Part shown: piece by piece, positions 1 through 36,701 of the stretch
How positions within the stretch are numbered: the first letter of the stretch is position 1
How the letters are laid out: each line of letters starts with the position of its first letter
From: Candidatus Fervidifonticultor quintus
GTDB lineage: Bacteria; Sysuimicrobiota; Sysuimicrobiia; Sysuimicrobiales; Humicultoraceae
Direction: 5' to 3'
Length of the DNA stretch: 36,701 bases
Assembly (NCBI GenBank): GCA_031459535.1
Contig: JAVKIJ010000025.1
Span: 1-36,701, forward strand
Notes under the pieces: generated by a model
Told to the model about the DNA's origin: nothing
The model's input: the letters and a program-made list of their open reading frames with translations, nothing else
Database searches by the model: none
Position numbers and translations under genes: made by a program

Positions 1-745
1 TCATGCGGACGAGGCTTACATGAAGCCGTACGGGATCCCGACCACGCAGTTCGCCGAGTACCGGGACAGCGTGCACGGCGAGGCGCTGCTCGAGCGAGGG
101 AACCGGCAGGCACCGGCCTGCAACGATTGCCATGGTAATCACGGCGCGGTGCCGCCGGGCGTCGCCTCGGTGGCCAATGTCTGTGCCCAGTGCCACGCGT
201 CTCAGCGCGACCTGTTCCTCCGCAGTCCCCATAAGGCGGCGTACGAGGCCGCCGGGTTCGGTCAGTGCACCGTCTGCCACGGAAACCACAAGATCGTCCG
301 GCCCAGCGACGAGATGGTGGGCGACGCTACACCGGCTATCTGCGCCCAATGTCACACTGCCGGTAGCCCGGGCGGCATAGCCGCGGCAACCATGCGCAGG
401 ACGCTGGAGGACCTCAAGAGCAGTATCGCCGTTGCTGCTGGCGTCGTGGGCCGCGCGGAGCACCTGGGCGTCGACATGACAGACGCCAAGCTCCCGCTCG
501 CCGATGCGCAGACCCAATTGACGCTGGCTCGCAACTTGGTGCACAGCCTGTCGCTGCGAGAGATGCAGACCGCTGTGGCCTCGGGCGCCGGGCTCGCGCG
601 GCGGGCCGAGGACCTGGGGCGGGCCGGCCTGGCAGAGATTGGGTTCCGGCGCAGGGGGCTCGTGGCGGCACTCGCCGTCATTGCCGTCCTGCTGGCGGGT
701 CTGTGGCTGCGGATTCGGTCGCTACCCCGCCCGGTCGGTCGGTAG
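1..745 (+). CDS. Multiheme c-type cytochrome, 5'-truncated by the window edge; C-terminal helical stalk and membrane anchor
   Basis: The frame is open from base 2 (HADEAYMKPY..., probably the tail of a further CxxCH). Four complete CxxCH motifs: CNDCH, CAQCH, CTVCH, CAQCH. An Ala/Leu helical region is followed by RRR and a hydrophobic helix GLVAALAVIAVLLAGLWL. Stop TAG 743-745. Confidence 0.85.
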   Translation, partial: HADEAYMKPYGIPTTQFAEYRDSVHGEALLERGNRQAPACNDCHGNHGAVPPGVASVANVCAQCHASQRDLFLRSPHKAAYEAAGFGQCTVCHGNHKIVRPSDEMVGDATPAICAQCHTAGSPGGIAAATMRRTLEDLKSSIAVAAGVVGRAEHLGVDMTDAKLPLADAQTQLTLARNLVHSLSLREMQTAVASGAGLARRAEDLGRAGLAEIGFRRRGLVAALAVIAVLLAGLWLRIRSLPRPVGR

Positions 746-756
746 ACCCCTGCCCC

Positions 757-1890
757 CTACCTCAACGCGTCCAGGGTGGTGTTGACGACCTGGCGGACGA
801 AGCGCGGGTTGTGCACGCCCCAGCTCCCGTCTCCCTCGAGCAGCCAGAAGTTCCAGCCAGCTTTGATGATGGGGTCGCTGGTGGCGAACGAGGGCCGACC
901 CTGGGCATCCCGCAGTTCGCCAATCTGGGTGGAGATCCGGCGGCCGGTGCTCAGGTGGAGCGTGACGCCCTGCTGGCCGGCGATTTCCGCGAGTTCCACC
1001 TTGGTGATGGTGGCCGGGTCAACGGTTACGGTGTCCACGTACGCGTAGACCGTCGGGTTCCAGACGCGGACCGAGTGAATGCGGGACCGGTTGGCCATGA
1101 TCCTCGCCGCGATGGCTGCCTCGAGCTCGTGAATCAGGGTTCGCGCGCCGTTCTGCACCCGCGAGGCGGTCATGTCTGGTCCGTGACACCGGCTGCAGAC
1201 GTTGGGATCGGCCTTGAAGGTGTGGGGCTCCTTGCTCATGCGCACGTGGCACGTGACGCATGAGTCGCCGATGAATGTGGCGTGCGGCGAAATGAAGTTG
1301 CTCCCGTAGTCCACGTAGAAGACGTTCTTGCCCATGAGGACGTCGGCCTGCGAAGCGGTGTGCGGAGCCGTGTAGCGGCCGGCATCGGGCGCGTTCCAGG
1401 CAATGGCGCCGTTGCGGGAGTTGTGGCAGGTCATACACTGCGCGCCGAGCCCGACCCCGATGGCGCGGAAGCCCGCCGGCAGTAGCGGCGTCTGACCTAC
1501 TTGCCGGAGCTTGAAGTCCGGCTGGTGACACGTGGTGCAGGTCACCGGTTGCACCGCCCTGCGGTTCAACCCCAGGCTGACCAGGAAGGGCACGTCGGCG
1601 GCAGAGCCATCGGGCTTGGTGATCAACCCAGGGTTCCCCCGTTGGAGCTGGGGGAGCCAGGCCAGGTAACCTTGCTCAGCGTGACAGCGGCCGCAGTGGG
1701 CCGCCACGACACCCCGCCGGCCATCAGCTGTGGCCTCCAGCGAGGGGCGCAGGCGGTTGGCATGCTTGGATCTGGCCCACTGGGCGCGCTGATCGGCCTG
1801 TGCGCGGGCCGCGACGACGCCAGCGCCGAGGAGGAGGACCAAGGAGAACACTACGGTCCAGAGTGCAGTGACCCCGCGTTCCCGTGTCAC
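757..1890 (-). CDS. Exported pentaheme c-type cytochrome (c552/NrfA-HAO-like C-terminal helices, no CxxCK)
   Basis: Signal peptide MTRERGVTALWTVVFSLVLLLGAGVVAARA. Five CxxCH: CGRCH, CTTCH, CMTCH, CVTCH, CSRCH. C-terminal GDGSWGVHNP motif. Start placed at GTG 1890 because AAAGGGGG lies ~9 nt upstream; the ORF track's GTG 1914 is an alternative. Confidence 0.8.
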   Translation of the reverse strand: MTRERGVTALWTVVFSLVLLLGAGVVAARAQADQRAQWARSKHANRLRPSLEATADGRRGVVAAHCGRCHAEQGYLAWLPQLQRGNPGLITKPDGSAADVPFLVSLGLNRRAVQPVTCTTCHQPDFKLRQVGQTPLLPAGFRAIGVGLGAQCMTCHNSRNGAIAWNAPDAGRYTAPHTASQADVLMGKNVFYVDYGSNFISPHATFIGDSCVTCHVRMSKEPHTFKADPNVCSRCHGPDMTASRVQNGARTLIHELEAAIAARIMANRSRIHSVRVWNPTVYAYVDTVTVDPATITKVELAEIAGQQGVTLHLSTGRRISTQIGELRDAQGRPSFATSDPIIKAGWNFWLLEGDGSWGVHNPRFVRQVVNTTLDALR

Positions 1891-2031
1891 CGACACCAGC
1901 CCCCCTTTCGGCACCCATCGAGCATTGAACCCCTGGGTTCGCCGCTCCCTCCGCGCGTCCCTCCTGCTACTCGTCCCGCATGCCCTACCTGTCGAGCACG
2001 TAGATCCCGGTCACAGGCCCTGCGGCCGGGG

Positions 2032-18438: not shown

Positions 18439-19338
18439 ATGACCCTGCGCGAGGCGCTGAGCAGCGGCGCGTTCGTCGTGACCGTCGAGGCGGCGCCACC
18501 CAAAGGCACGGCGGTGGAAGGGGTCCTGGCCGAGGCGGAGAAGCTGCGCGGCCGCGTGCAGGCGTTCAACGTGACGGATCAACAGAGCTCCGTCATGCGC
18601 CTGGGATCCCTGGCCCTCTGCCACCTGCTTGCCGAGCGGGGTCTGGAGCCCGTCTACCAGGTGACCTGCCGCGACCGCAACCGCATCGCGCTGCAGTCCG
18701 ACCTGTTGAGCGCGGCGGCTTTGGGGATCGAGAACGTGCTGTGTCTCACTGGTGACCACGTTAGCATGGGCGATCACCCCCAGGCCAAGCCCGTCTTCGA
18801 CCTGGACGCGGTCACGCTGCTGCAGGCGGCGCGGGCGCTGATGGAGGGCCACGATCTGGCCGGGAAGGAGCTGGCCGGCGCCCCGCGCTTCTTCCTCGGC
18901 GCCGTCGTGAGCCCGTGCGCCGAGCCGCTCGAGCCCCAGATCTTCAAGATGGAAAAGAAGGTGCGCGCCGGGGCGGCGTTCTTCCAGACCCAGGCCATCT
19001 TCGACCTGGGCCGGTACGCGGCGTTTCACGAGGCGACGCGCGGCATGGGCGTGCCGGTGCTCGCCGGGCTGGTGATGCTCAAGTCGGCCAAGATGGCCCG
19101 GTTCATGAACCAGAACGTCCCGGGCGTCTTTGTGCCCGGTGCGCTCATCGCCGAGATGGAAGCCGCCAAGGACGCCAGAGAACGCGAGCGCGCCAGCGTG
19201 GAGATCACCGCCCGCCTGATCCGGGGGCTCCGGGGGCTGGCCGCGGGCATCCATATCATGGCCATGGGCTGGGACCATCTCATCCCGCGGGTGCTGGAGG
19301 CCGCTGGCCTGCAGCAGCAGCCTGTGGAGGCGGCGTGA
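18439..19338 (+). CDS. metF: Methylene-THF reductase flavoprotein subunit MetF
   Basis: NVTD, TCRDRNRIALQSDLL, LCLTGDH, KKVRAGAAFFQTQ, GIHIM. Confidence 0.93.
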   Translation: MTLREALSSGAFVVTVEAAPPKGTAVEGVLAEAEKLRGRVQAFNVTDQQSSVMRLGSLALCHLLAERGLEPVYQVTCRDRNRIALQSDLLSAAALGIENVLCLTGDHVSMGDHPQAKPVFDLDAVTLLQAARALMEGHDLAGKELAGAPRFFLGAVVSPCAEPLEPQIFKMEKKVRAGAAFFQTQAIFDLGRYAAFHEATRGMGVPVLAGLVMLKSAKMARFMNQNVPGVFVPGALIAEMEAAKDARERERASVEITARLIRGLRGLAAGIHIMAMGWDHLIPRVLEAAGLQQQPVEAA

Positions 19339-19339
19339 C

Positions 19340-22300
19340 GTGATCGAGCGAGAGGCCATCGATCGGTGCGGCCTGTTCGCCGGCCTCTCGGCGTCGGCGC
19401 GGGATCTGGTCGCCTCAATGGGCAAGGTCGTGACCTTCCGGCCCGGCGAGCGCGTCTTCAACGAGGGCGAGGAGGCCCGGTACCTGTATGTGATTCACGA
19501 GGGCCGGGTGGCCCTCGAGATGCGTCCGCCGCGGCCGGATGGTGACGCTCCCCGGTCGGTGGTCGTGACCGTGCTGGGCCCCGGCGACCCCCTGGCGTGG
19601 TCGGCGGTGGTGCCGCCGTTTGTGCTGACCATGTCCGCAGTGTGCATCGAACCCACGGTGCTGGTGGCCCTGGACGCGCGTCCCCTGCGGCGGTTGATCA
19701 CCCTCGACTGGGAGACCGGATACGCCATCATGGCGGGGCTGGTCGACCTGATCCTGTCCAGGCTCTCGACCATCCGGGCGCGCATGGCCCAGATCCACGC
19801 GGCGGCGGCGTTCGACCTGCGGGCGCCCGCCATGCGGGTCGCCACCTATCTGGAGTCGGTCCTGGCCGGCTACGCCGGAGAACTGACCGCCGACCAGCGG
19901 CACATCCTCCAGGGGTGCCGCGAGCGTCTGCAGGCCCAGATCGATGTGCTGGACCGCCTCCTTCGGGTGCCGGCTCCCGGCGACGAGCCGTTTGAGCGCG
20001 GGGAAATGACCCCGGGAGCGGTCGAGCCCGGCAAAGAAGGCGCCGGGCCCACGGACGGCAACGGGGCGCCCGTCGGCGCCGCAATGGTCGTGGGCGGCGG
20101 GATCGCGGGCATCCAGGCCGCCCTGGACCTCGCCGATGCGGGCATCAAGGTGTACCTGGTCGAGCGCGGCCCCGCCATCGGCGGCCGCATGGCGACCCTG
20201 GACAAGACCTTCCCCACCAACGACTGCGCCATGTGCATCCTGTCGCCCAAGCTCTCGGGCGTGGGGAGGCATCCCAACGTCGAGATCTTGACGCTGGCGG
20301 AACTGCAGCGGTTGGAGGGCGCCGCCGGGGACTTCGTAGCGACAGTGCGGCGGCGACCGCGCTTCGTGGACCCCCTGCGCTGCACGGCATGCGGTGACTG
20401 CGCCGCGGTCTGCCCCGTGAGCCTGCTCAGCGAGTTCGACGCGGGCCTCGCCGAGCGCAGGGCGATCTTCCGACCCTACGCCCAGGCCGTGCCCGGAGCC
20501 TATGCCATTGACAAGCGGGGGCGCGCGCCGTGCCGCGACGCCTGTCCCATCCACCAGCGCGCCCAGGGCTACGTGGCGCTGGTGGCCCAGGGGAGGTATG
20601 AAGAGGCCTTCAGGGTCATCGCCGACGACAACCCCTTCCCCGGCATCTGCGGCCGCGTCTGCAACCACCGATGCGAGGACGCATGCTCCCGGGGGTTGCT
20701 CGACGGCGCGGTGAACATCGCCGGCCTAAAGCGGTTCGTCGCCGACTGGATGTACGCGCGGCCGCGCCAGCCGGTTCAGCGCGCCGCCGTGCGGTACTCG
20801 GAGCGCGTGGCCGTGGTAGGTTCAGGGCCCGCGGGATTGACCGCGGCGCGTGACTTGGCGTTGCTGGGCTATCAGGTCACCGTCTTCGAGGCGCTGCCCG
20901 TCGCCGGGGGCATGATGCGTGTGGGCATCCCCGAGCACCGCCTCCCGACCGCCATCGTCGAGCGCGAGATCGCCGACATTGCCGACCTGGGGGTCGAGAT
21001 TCGCTGCAACAGCCGCATCGCCCATGTCCGCGACCTGCTCGCCGACGGTTTTGCGGCGGTGTTCGTGGCCAGTGGCGCGCACCGGGCCCGGCGCCTGCCG
21101 ATTCCCGGCGCCGAGTTGCCGGGCGTCCTGGTCAGCACCGACGTGCTCCAGAACGCCCGCCTGGGCAGGCCGGTGGCGCTGGGCCGACGGGTGCTGGTGT
21201 TGGGCGGCGGCAACGTCGGGTTCGACGTGGCCCGCACCTGCGTGCGCCTGGGCGCGGAGGAAGTCCGTGTGCTCTGCCCGGAGTCGCGCGAGGCGATGCC
21301 TGCCCATCCGTGGGAGATCGCCGCAGCGGAAGAAGAAGGGGTCAGGGTCCATCCTGGCACGGCGTTCGTGCGGGTGATCGAGCGCGACGGCCGGGCCGCG
21401 GGTCTGGAATGCCAGCGCGTGCGCTCGATGCGGTTCGACGAGGCGCGCCGGCTCCACCTGGATCTGGTCGAAGGCAGCGAGCATGTGTTCGAGGCGGACA
21501 CCATCGTCTTCGCCATCGGGCTGGCCGTGCAGCTCGAGCTGGTTGAGGGCCTCTCGGGCATTGAGACCACGCCCTGGGGCTCCTTGGCGGTCGACCCGGT
21601 CTCCGGGGCCACGGGTCATCCCGGCGTATTCGCCGGCGGGGATGTGGCCACCGGCACCGCGTTCGTGGTGGACGCGATCGCCGCGGGTCAGCGGGCGGCC
21701 AAAGGCATTCACGCCTACCTGAGAGGCGAGGCGCTGGCGACGAAGCTCCCGGCTCCCGTGGCGACGCTCGACCGGGCCGAAGTCGAGCGACGCCTGGCGA
21801 GGGGATTGATCCGACCGCAACCCCGCGCGACCGTTCACGCCCTGCCGCCGCAGGAGCGGCGCGCGTCGTTCGTTGAGGAGGACCTGGGGCTCACCGAGGA
21901 AGAAGCGCGGCGGGAGGCCAGCCGCTGCTTGGCGTGCGGGGCCTGCTCTGAATGTTTTGCCTGCGTCGCAGCCTGCAAGCGAGGGGCCATCAACCACGAG
22001 GAGGTCGAGCGCCTCGAGCGCCTGCGGGTCGGCGCCGTGATCCTGGCCCCTGGCATCGAGCCGTTCGATGCCACCCTCGCCGAGGCCTACGGCCTGGGCC
22101 GCTTTCCCAACGTGGTCACCGGGCCGCAGTTCGAGCGGCTGCTCTCGGCCTCGGGCCCTACTCAAGGACACATCACCCGGCCTTCGGACGGCAGAGAACC
22201 GAGGCGCATCGCGTTCCTGCAGTGCGTGGGCTCCCGTGACCAGCGCACCAAGTACTGTTCGACCGTGTGCTGCATGTACGCCACCAAGGAGGCCATCCTG

Positions 22301-24493
22301 GCCCGGGAGCACGCGCCGGATGCGGAGTGCACGGTCTACTACGCCGACCTCCGCGCGTTTGGCAAGGGGTTCGACGCCTACATCGAACGGGCCAGGCGCG
22401 CAGGGGTGCGTTACGTCCGCACGCGGGTCGCCGCGCTGCGCGAGGATCCGCGTACGCGCTCGCTTTCCTTCAGGGTGGAAGAGAACGGTCAGATCCGCGA
22501 AGAGGAGGCCGACCTAGTCGTCCTCTCCGTGGGCCTGACCCCGCCGGCCGGCGCCGCGGCCCTGGCCACCGCCGCGGGCATCGAGCTCGACGGTTACGGG
22601 TTCGCCAGGACCTCCCCCACCTCGCCCCTGCAGACATCCCGCGCCGGGGTGTTCGCCGCCGGGGGATTCCGCGGTCCCAAGGACATCCCCGATTCAGTGA
22701 CCGACGGCAGCGGCGCCGCAGCCGCGGCCCTGGAGCTCATCGGTGCGGCCCGCGGCACCCAGATCGTGGCCAAGACGTATCCGCCCGAGATGACGGTGGA
22801 TCCGATCCCGCGCATCGGCGTGTTCATCTGCCACTGCGGGTCGAACATCGCCGGCGTGGTGGATGTCAGGGGCCTGGCGGCCTACGCTCGCACACTGCCG
22901 GGTGTGGCCGTGGCCGAGACGTCCATGTACACGTGCTCTGCCGACACCCTGGCGCGCATCAAGCAGGCCATCGCAGAGGAGCACCTCAACCGGGTGGTCG
23001 TGGCGAGCTGCACGCCTCGGACCCATGAGCCCATCTTCCGCGAGGCGCTGCGGGAAGCCGGGCTGAACCCGTACCTGTTCGAGATGGCCAACATCCGCGA
23101 CCAGTGCTCGTGGGTCCACGGGGCTGATCCCGCCGCGGCCACCGAGAAGGCCCGCTTGCTGATTGCCGCGGCTGTGGCGCGGGCGGCGCGACTGCAGCCG
23201 CTGCACAAGGTGCCGGTGCCGATGCGAGGCGAGGCGCTGGTGGTCGGCGGCGGGGTGGCCGGATTGACCGCGGCGCTCAACCTGGCCGACCAGGGCTTCC
23301 CGGTGACGCTGGTGGAGCGCGATGCTGCCCTTGGCGGCCGACTGCGCGCCTCGCGCCTCGCACGGGACGGTGAGCCCTCGGGCGCCGAGATCGCAGACCG
23401 GCTGATCGCGCGGGCCCGGGCCCATCCGAAACTCACCGTGCTGACCGGGTGCCACGTGGTCGCCTCGCGCGGTACCGTCGGCAACTTCGAGACCACCCTG
23501 GCTGGGCCCGACGGCGAACGCACCGTGCGGCACGGTGTCACGATCCTCGCCACGGGCCTCCAGGAGTGGCACCCGAGCCCCTACGGCGTCGGCGAGGACC
23601 CCCGGGTGATCACCCTGTCGGCGTTCGAGGCGAAGATCGCCGAGGGGGCGTGGCAGGAGCCTCCTCGCGCCGTGGCCATGTTGCTGTGCGCGGGCCCCTG
23701 GGATCGGATGCCGTTCTACTGCAGCCGCACCTGTTGTGCGCAATCTCTGGCCGCAGCCCTGGCCTTCAAACGCGCACATCCCCAGGCGTCGGTGGCGGTC
23801 CTGGTCCGCGAGGTCCGCACCTATGGGTTCACCGAAGAGCTCTACACCCAAGCGCGAGCGGCCGGGGTCCAGATATTCCGGTACGAGGCCGACGCGCCTC
23901 CGATCATCCAGCGCGCGCCGGAAGGCGTCGCCGTCACCGTGCGCGACCCGAGCCTGGGTGAAGTCCTGACGCTGGGGGCAGACCTGCTGGTGGTCTCGCC
24001 GGCCCAGGTGCCATCGGACGGCGCGGGTGAGCTGTCCAATCTGTTCAAGGTGCCGGCCTCGGCGGAGGGTTTCTTCCTGGAGGCCCACGTCAAGCTGCGG
24101 CCCGCGGACTTCGCCAGCGAGGGCCTGTTCCTCTGCGGCGGCGCGCACTATCCCAAGCCGGCGGGCGAGGCGATCGCCCAGGCCCTGGCCGCCGCCGCTC
24201 GCGCCAGCACCCTGCTGTGGCGCGACAGCCTCGAGGTGGGCGGCGTGGTGGCGTCGGTCGACCGCGACCGGTGCACGAAGTGCCTGACCTGCCTACGGCT
24301 GTGCGCGTATGACGCCATTGTGTTCGACGCCGACGGCATCGCGGTCGTGGAACCGACTCGCTGCCAGGGATGCGGTCTGTGCGTGGCCGCCTGCCCGGGC
24401 AGCGCGCTCAGCCTGGGGCACTACACGCGCGACCAGATGCTCGCCAAGATCGACGCGTTGCTCGGCGAAATGGAGGCCGTGCATGCCTCCTGA
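19340..24493 (+). CDS. hdrA: Large HdrA-like flavoprotein (HdrL type: two HdrA modules plus inserted GltD-like NAD(P)H module) with N-terminal cNMP-binding and HisKA-like domains
   Basis: 1717 aa with no internal stop; RBS GGAGG before GTG 19340. Residues ~1-150 look like a cNMP beta-roll (VFNEGEEARYLYVIHEGRVAL). Residues ~158-208 read FDLRAP...GYAGELTADQRHIL. HdrA motifs: VVGGGIAG, LDKTFPTNDCAMC, CVGSRD..YCSTVCC, FICHCG.NI, CTPRTHE, NIRDQCSWVH. GltD insert from PCRDACP to RCLAC. C-terminal 2x[4Fe-4S]. Confidence 0.92.
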   Translation: MIEREAIDRCGLFAGLSASARDLVASMGKVVTFRPGERVFNEGEEARYLYVIHEGRVALEMRPPRPDGDAPRSVVVTVLGPGDPLAWSAVVPPFVLTMSAVCIEPTVLVALDARPLRRLITLDWETGYAIMAGLVDLILSRLSTIRARMAQIHAAAAFDLRAPAMRVATYLESVLAGYAGELTADQRHILQGCRERLQAQIDVLDRLLRVPAPGDEPFERGEMTPGAVEPGKEGAGPTDGNGAPVGAAMVVGGGIAGIQAALDLADAGIKVYLVERGPAIGGRMATLDKTFPTNDCAMCILSPKLSGVGRHPNVEILTLAELQRLEGAAGDFVATVRRRPRFVDPLRCTACGDCAAVCPVSLLSEFDAGLAERRAIFRPYAQAVPGAYAIDKRGRAPCRDACPIHQRAQGYVALVAQGRYEEAFRVIADDNPFPGICGRVCNHRCEDACSRGLLDGAVNIAGLKRFVADWMYARPRQPVQRAAVRYSERVAVVGSGPAGLTAARDLALLGYQVTVFEALPVAGGMMRVGIPEHRLPTAIVEREIADIADLGVEIRCNSRIAHVRDLLADGFAAVFVASGAHRARRLPIPGAELPGVLVSTDVLQNARLGRPVALGRRVLVLGGGNVGFDVARTCVRLGAEEVRVLCPESREAMPAHPWEIAAAEEEGVRVHPGTAFVRVIERDGRAAGLECQRVRSMRFDEARRLHLDLVEGSEHVFEADTIVFAIGLAVQLELVEGLSGIETTPWGSLAVDPVSGATGHPGVFAGGDVATGTAFVVDAIAAGQRAAKGIHAYLRGEALATKLPAPVATLDRAEVERRLARGLIRPQPRATVHALPPQERRASFVEEDLGLTEEEARREASRCLACGACSECFACVAACKRGAINHEEVERLERLRVGAVILAPGIEPFDATLAEAYGLGRFPNVVTGPQFERLLSASGPTQGHITRPSDGREPRRIAFLQCVGSRDQRTKYCSTVCCMYATKEAILAREHAPDAECTVYYADLRAFGKGFDAYIERARRAGVRYVRTRVAALREDPRTRSLSFRVEENGQIREEEADLVVLSVGLTPPAGAAALATAAGIELDGYGFARTSPTSPLQTSRAGVFAAGGFRGPKDIPDSVTDGSGAAAAALELIGAARGTQIVAKTYPPEMTVDPIPRIGVFICHCGSNIAGVVDVRGLAAYARTLPGVAVAETSMYTCSADTLARIKQAIAEEHLNRVVVASCTPRTHEPIFREALREAGLNPYLFEMANIRDQCSWVHGADPAAATEKARLLIAAAVARAARLQPLHKVPVPMRGEALVVGGGVAGLTAALNLADQGFPVTLVERDAALGGRLRASRLARDGEPSGAEIADRLIARARAHPKLTVLTGCHVVASRGTVGNFETTLAGPDGERTVRHGVTILATGLQEWHPSPYGVGEDPRVITLSAFEAKIAEGAWQEPPRAVAMLLCAGPWDRMPFYCSRTCCAQSLAAALAFKRAHPQASVAVLVREVRTYGFTEELYTQARAAGVQIFRYEADAPPIIQRAPEGVAVTVRDPSLGEVLTLGADLLVVSPAQVPSDGAGELSNLFKVPASAEGFFLEAHVKLRPADFASEGLFLCGGAHYPKPAGEAIAQALAAAARASTLLWRDSLEVGGVVASVDRDRCTKCLTCLRLCAYDAIVFDADGIAVVEPTRCQGCGLCVAACPGSALSLGHYTRDQMLAKIDALLGEMEAVHAS

Positions 24494-24983
24494 AGTCGAG
24501 TCGGTTGCTGCCCGCACCCCGCCCGCACCACCGGCTGAGGCCTCCAGCGCACCGGTGCAGATCGTGGCCTTCTGCTGCTTCTACTGCGCGTATGCCGCAG
24601 CCGATCTGGCGGGCGTGATGCGCCTGTCCTACCCGCCCAACGTGAAGGTGGTGCTGCTGCCGTGCACCGGCGGGGTTGATCCGCTCTACATCCTACGCGC
24701 CTTCGAGGCCGGGGCGGACGGCGTGTTCGTGGCCGGGTGCCTGGAGGGCCAGTGCCACTACCAGGTGGGTAACCTCTATGCGCGCGGCCGCGTGGCAGAG
24801 CTGAAGCGTTATCTGGACGAAGCCGGCGTCGGCGGCGAGCGCCTGGAGATGTTCAATCTCTCGTCCGCGCAGGGGCCGCGGTTCGCGGAGATCGCCCGGG
24901 AGATGACCGAGCGCATCAGGGCCCTCGGTCCGTCGCCGGTCCGGCGGGCCGGGAAGGAGCGGGCACATGCCGCAGGCACCTAG
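24483..24983 (+). CDS. mvhD: MvhD-like [2Fe-2S] subunit
   Basis: ATG 24483 overlaps the hdrA end. AFCCFYCAYAAADLAG, LPCTG, AGADGVFVAGCLEGQCHY, ERLEMF. Confidence 0.92.
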   Translation: MPPEVESVAARTPPAPPAEASSAPVQIVAFCCFYCAYAAADLAGVMRLSYPPNVKVVLLPCTGGVDPLYILRAFEAGADGVFVAGCLEGQCHYQVGNLYARGRVAELKRYLDEAGVGGERLEMFNLSSAQGPRFAEIAREMTERIRALGPSPVRRAGKERAHAAGT

Positions 24984-26370
24984 CGCAGCGCGCGGCGGGC
25001 TCGCCGACGAGATTCGCGGCACTAGCGGCCAGGACGTGGCGCTCTGCTTCCAGTGCAAGGTATGCACCAGCGGGTGTCCCCTGGCCGGCGAGATGGACCT
25101 GGTGCCCCACGCGCTGATGCGTGCCCTGCAGGTGGGGCGCGATGCCCGCGTGCTGGGGGCCAACACGTTCTGGCTGTGCGCCTCCTGCCTGGCCTGCACG
25201 GCTCGCTGTCCTCAGGGCATCGACGTCGCCCGGGTCATGGACGGGCTGCGCATTATCGCCACGCGGCGGCGGGTACCGCCGCGGGTGCCGGAAGCGCTGA
25301 TCTTCTCCCAGGCGGCGGTGCGCAGCATTCGGATGTTCGGCCGGCTGTTCGAGGCAGGCGTGGGCGCCGAGATCAACCTGCGCACGTGGCAGCCGCTGCG
25401 TGCGGGCGCGCATGCCCTGCGTCTGTGGCGGGCGGGCAGGCTGCGCCTGCTCCCGGATCTGCCGGGCCGGCCGTCGCGCGCGCCCGCGGCGGCCGGCGAG
25501 ATTGCCTACTACCCCGGGTGCGCCCTGCACGCCAGCGCGCGAGAATACGATACGTCTGCCCGCGGCGTGGCCGAGGCGCTGGGCCTCGCGCTCCACGAGC
25601 TCGAGGGATGGCGGTGTTGCGGCGCCACGGCAGCCCACCAGACGTCTGCAGAGCTGGCCACGGACCTGCCGATGGCGAACCTGACCATGGCGGCCCAGCG
25701 CGGCTTCACCACCATCACCGCTCCGTGCGTGGCCTGCTTCTCGCGCCTCCGCTACGCCCAGGCCGCCTCACCCGAGCGCGCGCCGGCGGGGTTGCGGGTC
25801 CAGCACCTGCTACACACCCTGCTAGATGCCGGGCTGGAGGAGATCCGCCGCCGGGTGAGAAGGCCGCTGGGCGGGCTGCGCGTGGCGTGTTACTACGGCT
25901 GCCTGCTGACCCGGCCTCCGGCGATCACGGGCGCGCCGAGCGTGGAGAACCCGCGGGAGATGGACCGCATCATCGAGGCGCTGGGCGGAGAACCGGTCGA
26001 GTGGTCCTTCAAGACCGAGTGCTGCGGTGCCGGCCACGCCATCGTGAAGCCCGAAATCGTCGTAGGCTTGGTGCGCCGCATCCTGCGCAATGCGCAGGCC
26101 GCCAGCGCCGAGGCCGTGGCAGTGGCCTGTCCGCTGTGCCACCACAACCTGGACGCGCTGCAGGACGACGCCGCCCGCGCCGGCGACCTGCACCCGACCC
26201 CGGTGTTCTTCTTCACCCAGCTCTTGGCGCTGGCGTTCGGCCTCGACGAGCGGACCGTGGGTCTCGACCGGCTACTCGTAGACCCGCGGCCGCTGCTGCA
26301 GATGCGGGGGCTGCTACCGGTCGGGCCCCAGGAGCTGGGCGCGCGTGATGCGGCCCGCGCGGCAGGCTAG
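24967..26370 (+). CDS. hdrCB: Fused HdrC-HdrB protein
   Basis: HdrC clusters CFQCKVCTSGCP and CASCLACTARCP. HdrB: YYPGC, WRCCG, PCVAC, YYGCLL, ECCG, ACPLC (two CCG domains). Confidence 0.9.
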   Translation: MPQAPSAARGGLADEIRGTSGQDVALCFQCKVCTSGCPLAGEMDLVPHALMRALQVGRDARVLGANTFWLCASCLACTARCPQGIDVARVMDGLRIIATRRRVPPRVPEALIFSQAAVRSIRMFGRLFEAGVGAEINLRTWQPLRAGAHALRLWRAGRLRLLPDLPGRPSRAPAAAGEIAYYPGCALHASAREYDTSARGVAEALGLALHELEGWRCCGATAAHQTSAELATDLPMANLTMAAQRGFTTITAPCVACFSRLRYAQAASPERAPAGLRVQHLLHTLLDAGLEEIRRRVRRPLGGLRVACYYGCLLTRPPAITGAPSVENPREMDRIIEALGGEPVEWSFKTECCGAGHAIVKPEIVVGLVRRILRNAQAASAEAVAVACPLCHHNLDALQDDAARAGDLHPTPVFFFTQLLALAFGLDERTVGLDRLLVDPRPLLQMRGLLPVGPQELGARDAARAAG

Positions 26371-29989: not shown

Positions 29990-31587
29990 GAGCCACCGTG
30001 AGGGTCGGGACGTCTACCTGCGGCCTGGCAACCGGTGCCGAGGCGACGTACGTCGCGCTTCAGGAGGCGGCGTCGGATCTGGGGCTGGAGATATTTGTTC
30101 AGCGCACGGGATGCCTGGGCGCATGCCACCGCGAGCCGCTGGTCGAGATTGTCACAGACGGCGCGCACGTGCTGTATGGCCCTGTGACCGGGGATCGGGC
30201 GCGGCCACTGCTGGAAGGGCACTTCATGCTGCACGGAGCGTCTCCGCCGCCGCAGGAGTGGATCGTCAGCCGCACCGCCGACCGCCGCGACTATCCGTAC
30301 TTCGCCTCACAGATCAAAGTGACGACCAGGAACTGCGGGGCGATCGACCCGCGCTCGTTGGACGACTACCTGGCCGCCGGAGGGTACGAAGGGTTGAGGT
30401 GCGCGCTGGCCATATCCCCGGAGGCCGTGATCGACGAGGTCAAGCGGAGTAAGCTGCGCGGTCGCGGCGGGGCAGGCTTTCCCACCGGCGTCAAGTGGGA
30501 GATCTGCCGGCGTCAGCCCGATCCGATCCGGTATTTGGTGTGCAACGCGGATGAGGGCGATCCCGGCGCCTTCATGGACCGGACGGTCATCGAGGGCGAC
30601 CCCCACCGGGTCCTGGAGGGCATGGCCATCGCGGCCCACGCCATCGGCGCCCACCTGGGGTACGTCTACGTCCGAGCGGAGTACCCACTGGCCGTCCGGC
30701 ACCTGGAGGCGGCAATCGAGCAGGCCCGCGAGGCAGGCTACCTCGGGACCAATATTCTCGGCTCCGGCCTGAACTTCGATGTCATCGTGAGAGAAGGAGC
30801 AGGAGCGTTTGTCTGCGGCGAGGAGACAGCCCTCATGCAGTCCATCGAGGGTAAGCGTGGCGTGCCGCGGATGCGTCCGCCGTACCCCGCAGAGTCGGGC
30901 TTGTGGGGGCACCCCACCAACATCAACAATGTGGAGACCTACGCCAGCATTCCCGACATCATGACGAGGGGTGGGGAGTGGTTTGCGGGCCTGGGGACGG
31001 CTGACAGTGGCGGGACCAAGACGTTCGCGCTTACCGGCGCGGTCAGGCTCACCGGTCTGATCGAGGTCCCCATCGGGATCACGCTGCGGGACGTTATCTT
31101 TGGGATCGGCGGCGGCATCCGGGAAGGCCGGTCCTTCAAGGCGGTGCAGATCGGCGGACCGTCCGGCGGCTGTTTATCCGCCTCACACCTGGACACGCCG
31201 GTGGACTACGGGCCGTTGAGAGCCACGGGTGCCATCATGGGGTCGGGCGGCATGGTCGTGGTGGACGACCACACCTGCATGGTGGACCTGGCGCGTTATT
31301 TCCTGCAGTTCACCCAGAGCGAGTCGTGCGGGAAGTGCGTCCCGTGCCGGATCGGGACACGCAAGATGCTGGGCATCCTCACCCGCATCACCCGCGGGGA
31401 AGGCCGGGCCGACGACATCGAGCGCCTGGAACAGGTGGCGCAGACCGTTCGTACCGCGTCGTTGTGCGGCCTGGGCCTGACCGCGCCCAATCCGGTGCTG
31501 ACCACTCTTCGCTACTTCAGACATGAGTACGAAGCGCATGTTCATGACCGGACGTGCCCAGCCGGCGCGTGCGCCGGCTCGAGGTGA
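29986..31587 (+). CDS. nuoF: NuoF/HydB-like FMN/NADH-binding subunit lacking the C-terminal ferredoxin domain
   Basis: GTG 29986 (GTGA overlap). N-terminal thioredoxin-like domain (TCG...GCLGACHREP), RGRGGAGFPTG, CNADEGDPGAFMDR, FVCGEETAL, GGPSGG, ESCGKCVPCR...SLCGLG; ends CPAGACAGSR. Confidence 0.9.
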   Translation: MRATVRVGTSTCGLATGAEATYVALQEAASDLGLEIFVQRTGCLGACHREPLVEIVTDGAHVLYGPVTGDRARPLLEGHFMLHGASPPPQEWIVSRTADRRDYPYFASQIKVTTRNCGAIDPRSLDDYLAAGGYEGLRCALAISPEAVIDEVKRSKLRGRGGAGFPTGVKWEICRRQPDPIRYLVCNADEGDPGAFMDRTVIEGDPHRVLEGMAIAAHAIGAHLGYVYVRAEYPLAVRHLEAAIEQAREAGYLGTNILGSGLNFDVIVREGAGAFVCGEETALMQSIEGKRGVPRMRPPYPAESGLWGHPTNINNVETYASIPDIMTRGGEWFAGLGTADSGGTKTFALTGAVRLTGLIEVPIGITLRDVIFGIGGGIREGRSFKAVQIGGPSGGCLSASHLDTPVDYGPLRATGAIMGSGGMVVVDDHTCMVDLARYFLQFTQSESCGKCVPCRIGTRKMLGILTRITRGEGRADDIERLEQVAQTVRTASLCGLGLTAPNPVLTTLRYFRHEYEAHVHDRTCPAGACAGSR

Positions 31588-31597
31588 GGTGGTGGCG

Positions 31598-34507
31598 ATG
31601 GTGACCCTGGTCATCGACGGGAAGATCGTGACCGCCCCCGCGCGGTCCACCGTGCTGGACGCCGCGCTTGCCGCCGGGATCGACATCCCCCGCCTGTGCC
31701 ACCATCCGGACCTGACCCCCTGGGGCGGGTGCCGCCTGTGTCTCGTCGAGGTCGAGGGGCAGCCCGCACCAGTGCCCTCGTGCGGCCTGGTGGTCCGCGA
31801 TGGTCTGGTGGTCACCACGCGCAGCGAGCAACTGACCCAGCTGCGCCGCGAGGTCCTGGATTTCCTGCTGTCCGATCACCCGCTGGACTGCGTGGTCTGC
31901 GAGAAGGCGGGCCGGTGCCAGTTGCAGCGGTACGCCTACGAGTTCGGCCTGAAGGAGAGCACCCACGAGAAGGAGATTTCACGTACGCTCTACCAGGACG
32001 ACAACAAGTTCTTCGTCCGTGATCACCAGTACTGCATTGCCTGCACCCGCTGTGTCCGTGTGTGTGACGAGATCGTGGGTGCCAGCGCCATCGAGATGGC
32101 GCAGCGCGGCTTCACCGCGTATGTCGCGACGCCCTTTGACCTCCCGTTGGCCGACGGGCCCTGCACGTTTTGCGGAAACTGCGTGCAGGTCTGTCCCACG
32201 GCTGCTCTGATGCCCCTGAGCCGCCTTGGCCAGGGTCGCGAATGGGATCTGACCCAGACCCGCACCATCTGCCCCTACTGCGGTACAGGGTGCGGGATCG
32301 AGGTGGCCACGCGCAACGGCCAGATTGTGGCGGTCTGGGGCTATCCCGCAGCCACGGTCAACGGCGAGTTCCTCTGCACCAAGGGCCGGTTCGGCCTGGA
32401 CTACGTGACGCATCCTCACCGCTTGCGGCGGCCGTACATCCGGCGCGATGTGGCCCGTGAGCTCGGCCTGACCCAGGATCCACCGCCGCCGATGCTGGAC
32501 CGTTCCCCGCTTATCCGCCCTGCCGGGCTTTCGGGCACCCACATGGAAGTGGACTGGGATGTCGCGCTGGACCTGGTGGCCGATCGGCTGGCACGAATCG
32601 TGCGGGAGTCGGGGCCTGACGCCGTCGCCGGCATCGGTTCGGCGCTGGCCAGCAACGAGGACAACTACGTGTTCCAGAAGCTGATGCGGGGGGCGATCGG
32701 GACCAACAACGTTGACCTCTGCGCCCGTCTCTGACACGCACCTTCGGTGGCCGGTCTGGCCGCCGCCTTCGGAAGTGGGGCCACGACGAACAGCATCCGC
32801 GAGATCCGCGATGCCGACTGCATTCTGGTCATCGGGTCCAATACCGGTGAGGCGCACCCTGTGGTATCCTACGAGGTTGTTCGCGCCGTGAGGCGCGGGG
32901 CGACCCTGATCGTGATCGATCCGCGGCGGATCAGCCTGGTCCGGCACGCCGCGATGCATCTGCGTCCGGCACCCGGCGCCGACCATGCCCTCTACCTGGG
33001 TATGCTGCACGCCATCGTCGCCAACGGCTGGCACGATCCGCTGTTTATCGCGGAGCGCACCGAGGGGTTCGAGGATCTGGTGACATCGCTCCGGGCGTGG
33101 ACCCCTGAGGCTGCCAGCGCCCGCTGTGGGGTGCCCTCCGCACAGATCGTCGAGGCCGCCCGGTGCTACGCCTGGGGGTTGCGCCGCGCGGCCGCCAGCC
33201 AGGGTGCGGTCCCCTCGCAGCGGGGCGCCTCGACCATTCTCTACGGCATGGGCATCACCGAGCGCTCCAACGGCACCGAGCTGGTCAAGACCCTGGCGAA
33301 TCTGGTGATGGTCGCGGGACACGTCGGCCGGCCGTCCACCGGTATCTACCCCCTGCGCGGCCAGAGCAACGTCCAGGGCGGGTGCGACATGGGGTCGCTG
33401 CCCAACGTCTATCCAGGCTACCAGCGGGTGGAGGATCCCGAGGTGCGCGCCAGGTTTGCCCGCGCGTGGGCCCGTCCGCGCGCGAAGCCGCCCGAGCTCC
33501 CGACCAACCGTGGACTCACCTTCGTGGAAATGATCAAGGCGGCGGCCGAGGGGCGGATCAGGGCCATGTACATCATGGGGCAGAACACCGTGATGACCAA
33601 TCCTGACGCCGGCCTTTCCGAGCGAGCTCTGCGCGCGCTGGACTTTCTGGTGGTCCAGGAGATCTTCCCGACCGAGACCGCGCAACTGGCGCACGTGGTC
33701 CTCCCCGCTGCCTCCTTCGCCGAGAAGTCCGGGACGTTCGTCAACCTGGAGCGCCGGTTCCAACTGCTGCGGCCGGTACTCCCGCCGCCGGGGCAGGCGC
33801 GGCCCGACTGGCAGATCCTGTGCCAGGTCGGCGCGCGCCTCGGTCGGCGCCTGCGCCGGGCGCTGCGCTGGGAGTACGGATCGGCGGCCGAGATCATGGA
33901 CGAGATTGCCCGCCTGTGCCCGTCGTATGCCGGCATCAGTCACGCGCGGCTCGAGGCGGGCGGGATCCAGTGGCCGTGCCCATCGCCGACGCATCCTGGG
34001 ACGCCGATCATGCACGGCGGGCAATTCGTGCGCGGCCGAGGCCGGTTCCATGTGACGGCGCCAGCGCCTCCGTTCGAGCCCACCGATGCCGAGTATCCTC
34101 TGGCACTGTCCACGGGGCGGATTCTCTTCCACTACAACGGTGGGCCCATGACCCGGCGGTCGGTACCCCTTGATTGGCGAGAGCCGAGGGCCTATGTCGA
34201 AGTCAATCCGCTCGACGCCGAGCGCGCGGGCGTGCGGGACGGCCGGCCCTGTCTGGTCCGGGGCCGGCGCGGGAGCGTGAGGGTGCAGGCGCGGGTCAGC
34301 GATGTGGTGCCGCCCGGGATGGTCTATATGCCGTTCCACTTCCGCGAGGCAGCCGCGAACATCCTGACCCACGCCGACGGACTCGATGCCGGAGCCAAGA
34401 CGCCGGAGTACAAGTTCTGCGCGGTCAGGCTGGAGCCCGTCCAGGGCGGGCGGGAAGCGCTCGGCCGTGAGGGTGGGACCGAGACCGCAGCGGCTGCGGG
34501 CAGATAA
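31598..34507 (+). CDS. fdhA: Selenocysteine-containing Mo/W formate dehydrogenase alpha subunit with NuoG-like N-terminal Fe-S domains
   Basis: The two track ORFs are in one frame, joined by TGA 32732-32734 in NNVDLCARL-U-HAPS. Catalytic Arg in PLRGQSNVQG; CPYCGTGC; N-terminal [2Fe-2S], HPLDC..C.....C and 2x[4Fe-4S]; C-terminal KTPEYK. Confidence 0.93.
32745..32765 (+). promoter_or_regulatory. Bacterial SECIS element
   Basis: CGGTGGCC-GGTCT-GGCCGCCG hairpin starting ~11 nt after the UGA, with apical GGUC as in the E. coli fdhF SECIS. Confidence 0.8.
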
Positions 34508-34544: not shown

Positions 34545-36437
34545 GTGCGGCTGCACCTCAAGATCTCCCTGTGGACGATCGGCATCCTCCTGGTCGTCGG
34601 AGGCGTGGCGATCTATGCCCTCAACGCCTTCCAGCGGCGGGCTGCCCACGGGCAGATCCAGCACATGGCGCAGCTGCTCACGTCCACTATCCTCAACAGC
34701 CTCGAGATCACCATGATCCACAACAACCAGGAGGAGATGCGCGAGATCATCCGGTTGGTGAAGCGCGAAGAGACCCTCCGGGACGTGACCATCTACTCCC
34801 GGAACGGCAGTGTCTGGGTGACCGCGGGACCCGACCGGATCGTGCGCTCGTGCGAAGCTGAGGCGTTGCACCAGGCCATCGCCACCCGACGATCGGTTAC
34901 GGTCGAGGACGCGTGCGCGGAAGAGATCGTGGTGGTCACGCCGGTCTTGAACAAGTCCCCCTGCCAGCAGTGCCACGCCGCCGACCCCCAGGTCCTGGGC
35001 GCCATCGGCGTGTCCCTGTGGACCGCGCACGTGACGCCCGAACTCCAACGGAGCGTCCGGTGGCTGGCCGTGCTGGTGGGATTCAGTATCCTGCTGGCCC
35101 TGGGGACGCTGAACCTGCTGCTGGGCCGGGCGGTGCTGGATCCGCTCTCCGCCCTGGTGACCACGGTGCGCCGCGTGGCCGGCGGTGAGTATCAGGCGCG
35201 GGCCGAGGTGCGGGGAGGCGACGAACTGGCGGTCCTGGCCCGGTCGGTCAACGAGATGGCCGAGCGCATCGAACACTACACGGCCGGGCTCACCACCCAG
35301 ATCGGCGATCTCACCGGGCGGCTGGCCAGCCTGGGCATCTTTGGCCGCGCCCTGACCGAGGCGTCGGATCTGTCGGCCGCCATGGAGGAGATGACCCACG
35401 GCCTGCGGGACGTGCTGCGCGCCGACCTGGCGGCCATCTACCTGACCGACGGCGGCATGTTGTGCCTGGCCCACCGGTCCGGGAGCGGTGAGCTGCCACC
35501 GCGCGTGGCGGTCGGGGCCGGCGTGATCGGTCGGGCCGCGGCGCGCCGCCAGCCGGTCGGGGAACCTGAGTTTGAGCCCGCCCCCGGCTCTGCTGGCCCG
35601 ACGCTGGCCGTGCCCCTGGTGTTCAAGGACCGGGTGATGGGCGCCCTGGTGGTGGCGCGGCACGCCTGGTGGCCGTTCTCAGACGCCGATACCAGCCTGC
35701 TCGTGACCCTGTCGAACCAGCTCAGCATCGCCATGGAGAACGTGCGGCTGTTCCAGGAGGTCCGCGAGAAGGAGGCCCACCGCGGCGAGTTGCTCAGCAA
35801 GCTCATCACCGCCCATGAAGACGAGCGGCGGCGCATCGCGCGGGAGCTGCACGACGAGGTGAGCCAGTCGCTCACCGGGCTGATGATGACCATCACCGCA
35901 GCCGAGGGCGTCCACGACGAACAGGTGCTGAGGCAGCGCTTGACCGCAATCTACGCCGCCGCGGAGGCCACGCTGGAGGAAGTCCGCAAGATCATCCATG
36001 ATCTGCGGCCAACGGCGTTGGACGACCTGGGCTTGGTCTCGGCTGTGCGCGTACACGCCCGAAACATGCTGGAGGCCGCGGGCGTGCGGCTGACGTTCGA
36101 AGCGTCGGGATTCGGGCAGCGCCGCCTGCCGGCGGCGGTGGAGACCACTGTCTTCCGGGTCGCCCAGGAGGCCATCACCAATGTCGCGCGGCACGCCCGT
36201 GCCACAGCCGCGACCGTTGCGCTGCGCCTCGAGAACGGAACGCTCCACGTGCTGGTTGAAGACAATGGGAGAGGGTTCGACCCTCACCAGGTCCTCGGGC
36301 GGCGGGAGGATCGCCCGGTGGGGATCCTGGGCATGCAGGAGCGCGCCGCGCTCATTGGAGGCTCACTGGAAATCGACGCGCAGCCCGGGAGAGGGGCCAG
36401 GGTGCGGCTCGTGGTGCCGCTCAAGGAGATGGGGTGA
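34545..36437 (+). CDS. Membrane sensor histidine kinase (extracytoplasmic CxxCH domain, HAMP, GAF, HisKA_3, HATPase)
   Basis: Two TM helices flank a domain with PCQQCH (34962-34976). [35 protein letters not shown]-box [42 protein letters not shown]. Confidence 0.93.
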
Positions 36438-36438
36438 G

Positions 36439-36701
36439 ATGGAGAGAGCGACCAACACCATCCGCGTCCTGATCGTTGACGATCACGCGCTCGTGCGCGA
36501 GGGCATCAAGTCCCTGCTCCAGGGCATTCCGCAGATCGAGGTGGTGGGGGAGGCCGAGGACGGACTGGCGGCCATCGAGCAGGCCCGACTCCTTCGGCCC
36601 GACGTGGTGCTGATGGACATCGGGATGCCACGGATGACCGGCGTGGAGGCCACTCGGCACATCCGCCAGGAGGTGCCCACGGCCCAGGTGGTGGCGCTCA
36701 C
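36439..36701 (+). CDS. NarL/FixJ-family response regulator (3'-truncated by window edge)
   Basis: Not in the ORF track. ATG 36439 reads [27 protein letters not shown]...EVVGEAEDG...[22 protein letters not shown]; directly follows the HisKA_3 kinase. Confidence 0.92.

Follow-up and report, generated by a model that had tools for sequence, protein, structure and literature searches.

A Histidine Kinase Stub without Its Phospho-Acceptor Histidine or ATPase Domain Is Fused to an HdrA-Like Flavoprotein in a Wood-Ljungdahl Gene Cluster

Repurposed pseudo-kinase domains are already known as signaling parts. RetS, a complete hybrid kinase-like protein, uses its dimerization and histidine-phosphotransfer (DHp) domain to bind the DHp domain of a paralogous kinase, GacS, and acts in this way rather than by phosphotransfer (PDB 7n0e). 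Spo0B and ChpT are free-standing proteins in which a DHp-like four-helix bundle without autokinase activity is joined to a degenerate domain resembling the catalytic (CA) domain of kinases; Spo0B, whose bundle bears the His and has no ATPase domain, is a phosphotransferase. PMC4211667 refers to ChpT as a phosphotransferase. According to the same source, the Caulobacter pseudo-histidine kinase DivL has a DHp domain in which His is replaced by Tyr, needs no phosphorylation, still dimerizes, and functions as a module for sensing or docking. Binding persists in its Y550F variant, and the protein keeps its CA domain and all of the kinase boxes and acts on CckA. Here we describe a 36,701-nucleotide stretch of DNA from Candidatus Fervidifonticultor quintus (assembly GCA_031459535.1, contig JAVKIJ010000025.1, forward strand; the whole stretch is called the window below) in which one open reading frame (ORF) encodes the sensor and DHp stub of a kinase, without the His and without an ATPase domain, fused to an HdrA-like flavoprotein and held under purifying selection. 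What appears to be new is the fusion of such a part to a metabolic redox enzyme. Our literature search found no report of a sensor and DHp domain without an ATPase domain fused to a metabolic redox enzyme and no paper combining heterodisulfide reductase, cyclic nucleotide-binding, and histidine kinase. The terms cNMP, cyclic nucleotide, HisKA, and histidine kinase have zero occurrences in a preprint on HdrA architectures (10.1101/2024.09.26.615249), and Hdr, MetF, and histidine kinase go unmentioned in the main text of the paper on CSP1-3, the phylum of the named relatives.

The window holds a full Wood-Ljungdahl cluster on one strand, with the fusion gene next to metF. Of all the reactions of that pathway, the energy-determining MetF-Hdr-MvhD step is, to our knowledge, the one understood least. 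Moorella reportedly has a MetFV-HdrCBA-MvhD methylene-tetrahydrofolate (methylene-THF) reductase complex. The neighborhood of the fusion (metV-like gene, metF, hdrA, mvhD, and hdrCB) is the same as that of the MetFV-HdrCBA-MvhD complexes of acetogens such as Sporomusa ovata; the difference is the extension of HdrA derived from a sensor kinase, which is not described for these complexes in the abstract and outline of PMC9430772. Of 94 genomes of this phylum, 11 (this genome counted) carry the fusion, which was also located at eight loci of a species-genome collection. The clade is thus narrow, all of the data come from metagenome-assembled genomes (MAGs), and function is what we infer from them.

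Residues ~149 to 210 of the fusion are, on the evidence of sequence comparison, a genuine HisKA-family DHp domain. The closest complete proteins are cNMP_binding-HisKA-HATPase_c kinases of ~375 to 420 residues (P0014 and P0015), whose first ~210 residues are like those of the fusion and share its GWSA[LV]VPP motif, C-helix, and DHp domain with Q and RC motifs. The fusion differs from these kinases in having neither the CA domain nor the acceptor His and in that its C terminus runs via a linker into HdrA. In BLASTP, an 83-residue segment of the window formed a gapless 74-residue alignment with kinase P0015 at 38% identity (E = 2e-14), placing AAFDLRAP of the window opposite VSHELKAP of the kinase, with Phe on His; residues 1 to 225 aligned with kinase P0014 at 38% identity over 226 residues (E = 3e-47). 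Comparison by hhalign of the 11 fusion segments with the HisKA domains of seven unrelated kinases of the same genome gave a probability of 94.6% (E = 6.7e-8), again with Phe on His. PF00512 (HisKA) matched 6 of 10 orthologues, all in one register (protein positions 147 to 210 on profile positions 2 to 60), at 16.3 to 24.2 bits (best E = 3.4e-5). A DHp profile built from the fusions and eight real kinases retrieved 27 PDB chains at E ≤ 1, and 25 of these are histidine kinases by name (EnvZ, HK853, and VicK-like), each match being weak (best E = 0.012). Searches with the whole module (the profile against the PDB and Foldseek on the 208-residue model) were swamped by the cNMP fold and were uninformative on the DHp domain.

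Single-sequence searches with the window's own sequence do not reveal this domain. Pfam did not list HisKA at E ≤ 10 for the 83-residue segment or for residues 1 to 251, giving only DUF4456 at an E value of 0.21, and a six-frame search of the genome with PF00512 was blank at the fusion (seven kinases over the cutoff and one weak match, all elsewhere). Every fusion fell under the PF00512 cutoff of 26.9 bits, and four of the 10 orthologues went unmatched, as did the window. A phmmer search of the segment against the PDB returned zero matches, and NCBIfam returned nothing relevant for it. These single-sequence tools are blank on the window's own sequence, and it is the relatives that establish the HisKA identity. 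It is in residues 1 to 171 that a different reading finds its support, namely, that the segment is where the helices of a degenerate Crp/FNR DNA-binding domain begin after the cNMP fold: the best PDB and NCBIfam matches of this region were Crp/FNR regulators (GlxR, E = 2.5e-10; FtrB, E = 1.3e-7). These matches, however, stop at residues 150 to 171, inside the C-helix, and no helix-turn-helix (HTH) or HTH_Crp family was matched at E ≤ 10. Together with the gapless alignment to a Pfam-validated HisKA domain, the hhalign result, and the kinase chains recovered from the PDB by the DHp profile, this rules out a degenerate Crp/FNR helix-turn-helix, a reading to which we give almost no credence.

The kinase from which the stub derives is still encoded beside the fusion in most of the genomes that have it. 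In 8 of 11 fusion genomes, the gene next upstream is shorter, and its product is 39 to 43% identical to the fusion over the same 210 residues. The encoded kinase of ~393 residues has cNMP_binding (62 bits), HisKA (39.8 and 42.8 bits in P0014 and P0015; cutoff, 26.9), and HATPase_c (~107 bits) domains. Since such kinases were found on nine separate genome assemblies, the upstream genes are unlikely to be assembly chimeras. An alignment of the fusion modules with the kinase modules spans 209 columns, contains one gap of a single residue, and shows 38 to 42% identity; the two sets have in common the unusual motifs GRVALEM, GWSA[LV]VPP..TMSA, YL...L.G.AG[DE], and RC, and their similarity ends at LLRV, the DHp/CA boundary. 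The relative G034, from another family, has the unfused order metF-kinase-hdrA on one 3.7-kb contig of a genome that is 72% complete, and its HdrA carries a Pro/Gly-rich leader ending in the same PVGAAMVVGGG. A tree of 19 modules, whose root is not known, splits the 11 fusion modules from the eight kinase modules at 100/100 support and places the G034 kinase within the kinase group. In the window and in G004 and G006, which belong to the same genus, metF lies right against the fusion, and the kinase is missing.

The module was also sought more widely. A word-indexed search of proteins of 944 to 3,005 residues returned HdrA fusions only, namely, 10 orthologues (55 to 79% identity over the N-terminal 250 residues) and the fusion of the window. 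At near length, the word-indexed search gave a single kinase, P0016, and an unindexed search revealed the wider kinase family. A profile of the module searched against 1.84 billion representatives gave 29,068 matches at E ≤ 0.001. Among 22 of the best matches, which were scanned with Pfam, 17 had the cNMP_binding, HisKA, and HATPase_c domains (one with the ATPase domain cut off at the end), two had cNMP_binding and HisKA only (257 and 311 residues; these may be fragments), and three had cNMP_binding only.

The simplest history would be duplication of the kinase gene beside hdrA, followed by an in-frame join at the DHp/CA boundary, by which the sensor and DHp half would have been joined to the N-terminal leader of HdrA and HdrA would have taken the place of the ATPase domain. 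We hold the kinase-derived origin and the HisKA identity of the segment to be close to certain. A reading of this DNA made from the sequence alone (the sequence-only reading) had proposed that HdrA acquired the front half of a cNMP-sensor kinase, and the upstream kinases, the end of similarity at the DHp/CA boundary, and the unfused order in G034 bear this out. Its identification of a HisKA-like segment between the cNMP domain and HdrA was likewise upheld by the kinase alignments, hhalign, and the PF00512 matches of orthologues, as were the Phe codon at the His position and the absence of a HATPase domain after the segment. The comparison with PF00512 that it proposed gave a divided answer, in that the window's own sequence went unmatched and the orthologues matched below the threshold, with the profile-to-profile comparison in support.

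The layout of the fusion is given in Table 1. Pfam matched cNMP_binding and then, from residue 249 on, flavoprotein and Fe-S families only. The peptide quoted in the sequence-only reading is in frame and corresponds to residues 156 to 207 (window positions 19805 to 19960). The DHp domain ends in LLRV (residues 207 to 210) and the flavin adenine dinucleotide (FAD)-binding Rossmann motif of HdrA, VGAAMVVGGGIAG, begins at residue 245, so there is no space for a HATPase domain between them. A six-frame search of the genome with HATPase_c gave 18 matches, none of them inside 19340 to 24493; the sole match in the window was at 36141 to 36425.

Table 1. Positions of the fusion ORF, its parts, and the adjoining genes in the window (aa, residues of the fusion ORF unless another frame is named)
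Feature	Position	Strand	Basis or description
metF (methylene-THF reductase)	18439..19338	+	Pfam MTHFR, 129.5 bits
Fusion ORF, 1717 aa	19340..24493	+	CAP-like sensor, then DHp, linker, and composite HdrA-like flavoprotein
cNMP_binding-fold (CAP effector-like) domain, aa 31-120	19430..19699	+	Pfam, 43.4-47.1 bits (cutoff, 27.5)
Single continuous predicted helix, aa 124-175	19709..19864	+	Sensor C-helix merging into DHp alpha1; AlphaFold2
HisKA-type DHp domain without His, aa 149-210	19784..19969	+	alpha1, loop GYAGEL, alpha2 (aa 184-209), LLRV end
Phe158 codon TTC at the phospho-acceptor His position	19811..19813	+	Sequence read; alignments to kinases
Linker, 34 aa, Pro/Gly/Ala/Glu-rich, aa 211-244	19970..20071	+	Length and sequence variable among orthologues
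HdrA-like part, starting VGAAMVVGGGIAG (aa 245)	20072..24493	+	NCBIfam and Pfam
MvhD/FlpD-like gene	24309..24983	+	Pfam FlpD, 159.3 bits, aa 85-207 of its frame
HdrC/HdrB-like fusion (4Fe-4S dicluster and two CCG domains)	24967..26370	+	Pfam CCG, 75.2 bits; Fer4_17

The kinase-bearing relatives that were examined also keep candidate partners for the kinase. Two stand-alone receiver genes lie just upstream in all four kinase-bearing genomes examined (G007, G026, G029, and G034), in the order receiver-receiver-metF-kinase-hdrA; the receivers have frames of 131 to 178 residues and match Response_reg at 76 to 92 bits. In this genome, an orthologue of the cNMP kinase was not found, the sole full match to sensor and DHp being the fusion itself, and neither was an orthologue of the stand-alone receivers, for which the best match was 47% identity in a 242-residue frame beside another kinase. 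As an observation on the relatives' operons, a second copy of metF accompanies the receivers and the cNMP kinase in the metF-hdr operon at L039 (6528 to 9485, G007) and L040 (6590 to 9497, G026) and also in G029 and G034. A complete two-component set thus stands amid the Wood-Ljungdahl genes of the relatives, with no DNA-binding output domain nearby.

The residue at the His position varies among the orthologues. It is Phe in five, Ser in two, Tyr in two, and His in two of the 11 metagenome and window orthologues. Among the codons of the 11 fusion genomes, CAC or CAT (His) occurs seven times, TAC (Tyr) once, TTC (Phe) twice (this genome and G007), and TCC (Ser) twice, a series that forms a chain of single-base steps. 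The His is kept in all eight kinases. All seven His-bearing fusions belong to one genus. That genus has retained the kinase as well, and both receivers are present in the two of its genomes that were examined for them. The His has therefore been lost at least twice, as Tyr in G030 inside the His-bearing genus and as Phe or Ser in the window's genus. G007 and G030 keep the kinase though their fusions have no His, and G007 keeps both receivers too.

The remainder of the domain is tightly conserved. Between residues 161 and 209, 26 DHp residues are invariant in the 11 orthologues. The ratio of nonsynonymous to synonymous substitution rates (dN/dS; Nei-Gojobori) was 0.10 to 0.23 for the DHp domain in 10 of 10 pairs, with values of 0.16 and 0.18 for this genome against two other kinase-less genomes, and 0.07 to 0.29 for the sensor domain in all 10 pairs. 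The linker is 22 to 51 residues long among the orthologues, cannot be aligned, and is of low complexity and disordered-looking. Since the DHp domain is tightly conserved and its dN/dS low while the linker varies freely, the segment appears to be kept for a role other than carrying phosphate. The sequence-only reading had asked whether loss of the His is conserved among orthologous fusions and under purifying selection: the loss is not conserved, with His, Tyr, Phe, and Ser all represented, and purifying selection acts on the rest of the segment.

These values bear directly on two other accounts of the stub. One holds that it is a functionless relic of the gene fusion that has not yet decayed. 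This would fit with the disappearance of the catalytic His and the ATPase domain and with the parent kinase and receivers not being found here, but it is contradicted by the low dN/dS of both domains in all 10 pairs, by the invariant DHp residues lying beside a freely varying linker, and by a continuous fusion frame that is intact through the linker in 11 orthologues from relatives despite its changes in length. We consider a relic highly improbable. The other account is a phosphotransfer relay of the Spo0B/ChpT type between the two receivers, with the Phe of the window as a recent loss-of-function allele. His-bearing fusion orthologues beside a kinase and two receivers amount to the parts list of a relay, and the His is present in 7 of 11 genome orthologues, in a genus with the kinase and, in the two genomes examined, both receivers. 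The DHp domain of the window differs from Spo0B and ChpT in having Phe and in being fused to HdrA. A Phe cannot accept phosphate, so a relay is possible for the His-bearing relatives only. Furthermore, loss of the His occurred on at least two occasions, G007 and G030 still have the kinase despite a His-less fusion, and the His-less domains are under purifying selection (dN/dS, 0.16 to 0.18) and are not decaying alleles. A relay is therefore an improbable account of the window, though less so than a relic.

Structure prediction suggested how the stub might be organized. AlphaFold2 modeled the 208-residue module from a 19-row alignment with a predicted local distance difference test (pLDDT) score of 79.3, including a long helix at residues 122 to 173 in model numbering (ORF numbering is +2; pLDDT, 75 to 94) and a second helix at residues 184 to 209. 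Modeled alone, the DHp domain reached a pLDDT of 93.4 and was predicted as a helix, an 8-residue loop, and a helix. The predicted homodimer scored 0.62 versus 0.33 for the best of three controls. Among proteins solved as pairs of one chain, 20 of 30 reached this mark, as did 1 of 23 proteins solved as single chains. The dimer runs agreed in at least 96% of contacts, with a partner pLDDT of at least 84, and the predicted interface consists of a symmetric pair of C-helices (residues 124 to 155) and of DHp alpha1 packed against alpha2 of the partner. In a Foldseek search with the hairpin, chains of kinase DHp domains were mixed with hairpins of RNA polymerase, AcrA, and secretion chaperones. The top row was the RetS/GacS DHp complex (7n0e_B), on which the predicted hairpin superposes with a template-modeling (TM) score of 0.69 and a root mean square deviation of 1.9 Å at an E value, 0.47, that is not significant; the ERS1 DHp domain stood lower in the list with a TM score of 0.82. 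The likeness to RetS has its limits, in that RetS is a complete hybrid kinase-like protein and a partner kinase was not found here.

The homodimer modeling that the sequence-only reading recommended came out in favor of a dimer, the model outscoring its controls. That reading's proposal of a dimerizing four-helix bundle, a receiver-docking surface, or both is consistent with this evidence, no more. Its suggestion that the bundle transmits conformational change finds no such agreement if rigid transmission into HdrA is meant: a linker of 22 to 51 disordered-looking residues argues against it.

The sensor domain appears to be noncanonical. cNMP_binding (PF00027) was matched in 11 of 11 orthologues. 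In CRP-type pockets, a Glu and an Arg of the phosphate-binding cassette hold the cyclic nucleotide (cAMP). In the alignment with GlxR (PDB 4byy), in which ..FGEL..PRTS.. stands opposite ..LAWS..VLTM.., the Glu is replaced by Trp87 and the Arg by Leu96. Trp87 is invariant in the fusions and across the 19 fusion and kinase modules, Leu96 is nearly invariant in the fusions, and the stretch W87-S-A-x-V-P-P is invariant (window 19595 to 19630, residues 86 to 97). Because the pocket Glu and Arg are replaced by Trp and Leu, cyclic nucleotides (cAMP and cGMP) are unlikely ligands, and the ligand of the sensor is probably neither of them. The motif [LF][GA]WSA[LVI]VPP[FHY] gave 151 confirmed stretches in the species-genome collection, from which 79 distinct loci were kept. 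Eight of these have the whole module (62 to 81% identity) and are titled Armatimonadota bacterium, Candidatus Fervidifonticultor, Candidatus Nitrosymbiomonas, or bacterium. The remaining 71 have the CAP-like part only (26 to 41% identity) and come mostly from Chloroflexota-type and deltaproteobacterial MAGs. Among the 151 stretches, small proteins or single domains from MAGs of these two kinds predominate. The motif also occurred in proteins of ~150 to 170 residues in the search of the 1.84 billion representatives. By their sequences, the GWSA[LV]VPP CAP-like domains look like a distinct subfamily.

The most likely interpretation is that the stub is a phosphorylation-dead dimerizing bundle that couples a noncanonical CAP-like sensor to the HdrA of the MetF-Hdr-MvhD complex. 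As a whole we favor this as the best explanation, with somewhat better than even confidence, and we regard the dimerizing sensor-coupler mechanism itself, in this genome, as evenly balanced between true and false. The DHp domain would no longer bear phosphate; instead, its parallel coiled coil and four-helix bundle would pair two CAP-like sensors into a constitutive or ligand-tuned dimer. HdrA is the dimerizing core of the solved archaeal complex, and the flexible 34-residue linker would tether the sensor dimer to the HdrA pair of a MetF-HdrABC-MvhD methylene-THF reductase complex. Ligand-dependent rearrangement of the bundle might then modulate the enzyme, either through reversible docking of the tethered module or through control of HdrA pairing; these modes would be expected over a rigid piston, given the length and variability of the linker. 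In the ancestral arrangement, which relatives still show, the same surface would probably also have met the neighboring kinase, its receivers, or both. The arrangement hints at a signaling module acting directly on the HdrA enzyme. If such a built-in sensor is real, then the MetF-Hdr-MvhD step would be regulated at the protein level by a small molecule. The natural variants form a ready-made ladder: unfused; fused with the His, kinase, and receivers; fused with Phe and the kinase; and fused with Phe or Ser alone.

The strongest competitor to a dimerizing sensor-coupler is a live docking platform, in which the His-less DHp domain binds a receiver, as in DivL-DivK, or the DHp domain of another kinase, as in RetS-GacS, and the binding is read out on HdrA. 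The two stand-alone receivers in the same operon of all four relatives examined would suit this account, as would the kinase and receiver gene that stand at the end of the window's own cluster. Residues R161, P163, A164, R166, V167, Y170, and L171, which flank the His position, are invariant, and the face near the His is used for receiver recognition in kinases, according to PMC4211667; because they lie on that face, their invariance was counted in favor of docking. Moreover, a DivL protein in which Tyr or Phe replaces the His still binds the phosphorylated receiver specifically (same source). Unlike DivL, the fusion has lost its CA domain, has its DHp domain joined to a redox enzyme, and has no receiver partner found in this genome. 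An orthologue of the cNMP kinase was likewise not found, and the kinase at the end of the window is of HisKA_3, a different DHp family. In addition, the residue adjoining the His site varies within this genus as well (Asp, His, and Gln). We therefore judge live docking in this genome to be unlikely.

Several points count against the dimerizing sensor-coupler as well. Dimerization is predicted from a model, and dimers of this fold, from kinases and CRP, abound among solved structures; the success of the homodimer against its controls may show likeness to them no less than binding. Foldseek on the 69-residue hairpin returned zero rows at E ≤ 0.001, a two-helix hairpin being too simple. The long, variable, low-complexity linker obscures any predicted signal route into HdrA. 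With the His present in 7 of 11 genome orthologues, a phosphoryl role may exist in those proteins, and the state of the window may be a derived simplification. Finally, this genome is 88.85% complete, and the kinase and receivers stand as not found, their absence being unproven.

A broader idea links the window to its relatives, namely, that two-component signaling acts directly on an electron-bifurcating carbon fixation enzyme. An ancestral phosphorelay or docking circuit would have operated in the metF-hdr operon, with the window as a stripped-down, ligand-gated, and phosphorylation-independent dimerization switch. The parts of the ancestral circuit, as seen in the sister genus, would be the kinase with a CAP-like domain, two single-domain receivers, and a His-bearing DHp domain welded to HdrA, and the circuit would switch methylene-THF reduction posttranslationally. 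We advance this only tentatively; it is rather doubtful, if slightly less so than live docking in the window.

The enzyme to which the stub is attached is itself unusual. Below the curated cutoffs, its HdrA part matched NCBIfam HdrA2 at 929.1 bits (cutoff, 1100) and HdrA at 694.9 bits (cutoff, 1400), in four to five stretches. A GltD/NfnB-like NAD(P)-binding insertion occupies residues ~393 to 891 (PRK12771, 506 bits; cutoff, 516), and a second HdrA-like half at residues ~1290 to 1717 has C-terminal 2x[4Fe-4S]. By sequence, this part is clearly HdrA-like, yet it is a composite, bacterial, MetF-associated form. The fusion ORF starts with GTG one base past the metF TGA, and its GGAGG Shine-Dalgarno sequence, at 19326 to 19330, lies within the last codons of metF (GAG GCG GCG TGA). 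The gene before hdrA, metF or kinase alike, ends in ...EAA-stop (window 19327 to 19338; L010, L012, L013, L020, and L041); the kinase gene could have been lost through this repeated junction, which was compared at the nucleotide level in the window only. The true start of the MvhD/FlpD-like gene is probably near 24500.

In the order of the cluster, cooC, the carbon monoxide dehydrogenase gene, acsB, acsC, RACo, cooC, a DUF3786 gene, acsD, acsE, and a MaoC-like gene come first; the metV-like gene, fhs, metF, the fusion, mvhD, hdrCB, an FTCD_C cyclodeaminase-like gene, and folD form the middle; and GltD/NuoE-like and NuoF-like subunits, formate dehydrogenase, and a HAMP-GAF-HisKA_3 kinase with a receiver gene form the end. 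This last kinase, at 34545 to 36437 (+), has an Mcp40H-20 sensor, HAMP, GAF, HisKA_3, and HATPase_c, and the gene with the receiver domain, at 36181 to 36699 (+), is cut at the end of the window; the pair that closes the cluster is a candidate regulator of its transcription. The formate dehydrogenase alpha subunit, at 31523 to 34507 (+), appears as two listed ORFs parted by one in-frame TGA at 32732 to 32734. Read as selenocysteine, this TGA gives NNVDLCARLUHAPSVAG, which we take to be the classic selenocysteine position of FdhA, and the two ORFs are probably one selenoprotein gene. At the other end of the window, two multiheme c-type cytochrome genes, at 20 to 745 (+) and 757 to 1914 (-), adjoin the acetyl coenzyme A pathway cluster and show paired CXXCH motifs, cytochrome c3/c7 domains, and an MtrC-like domain.

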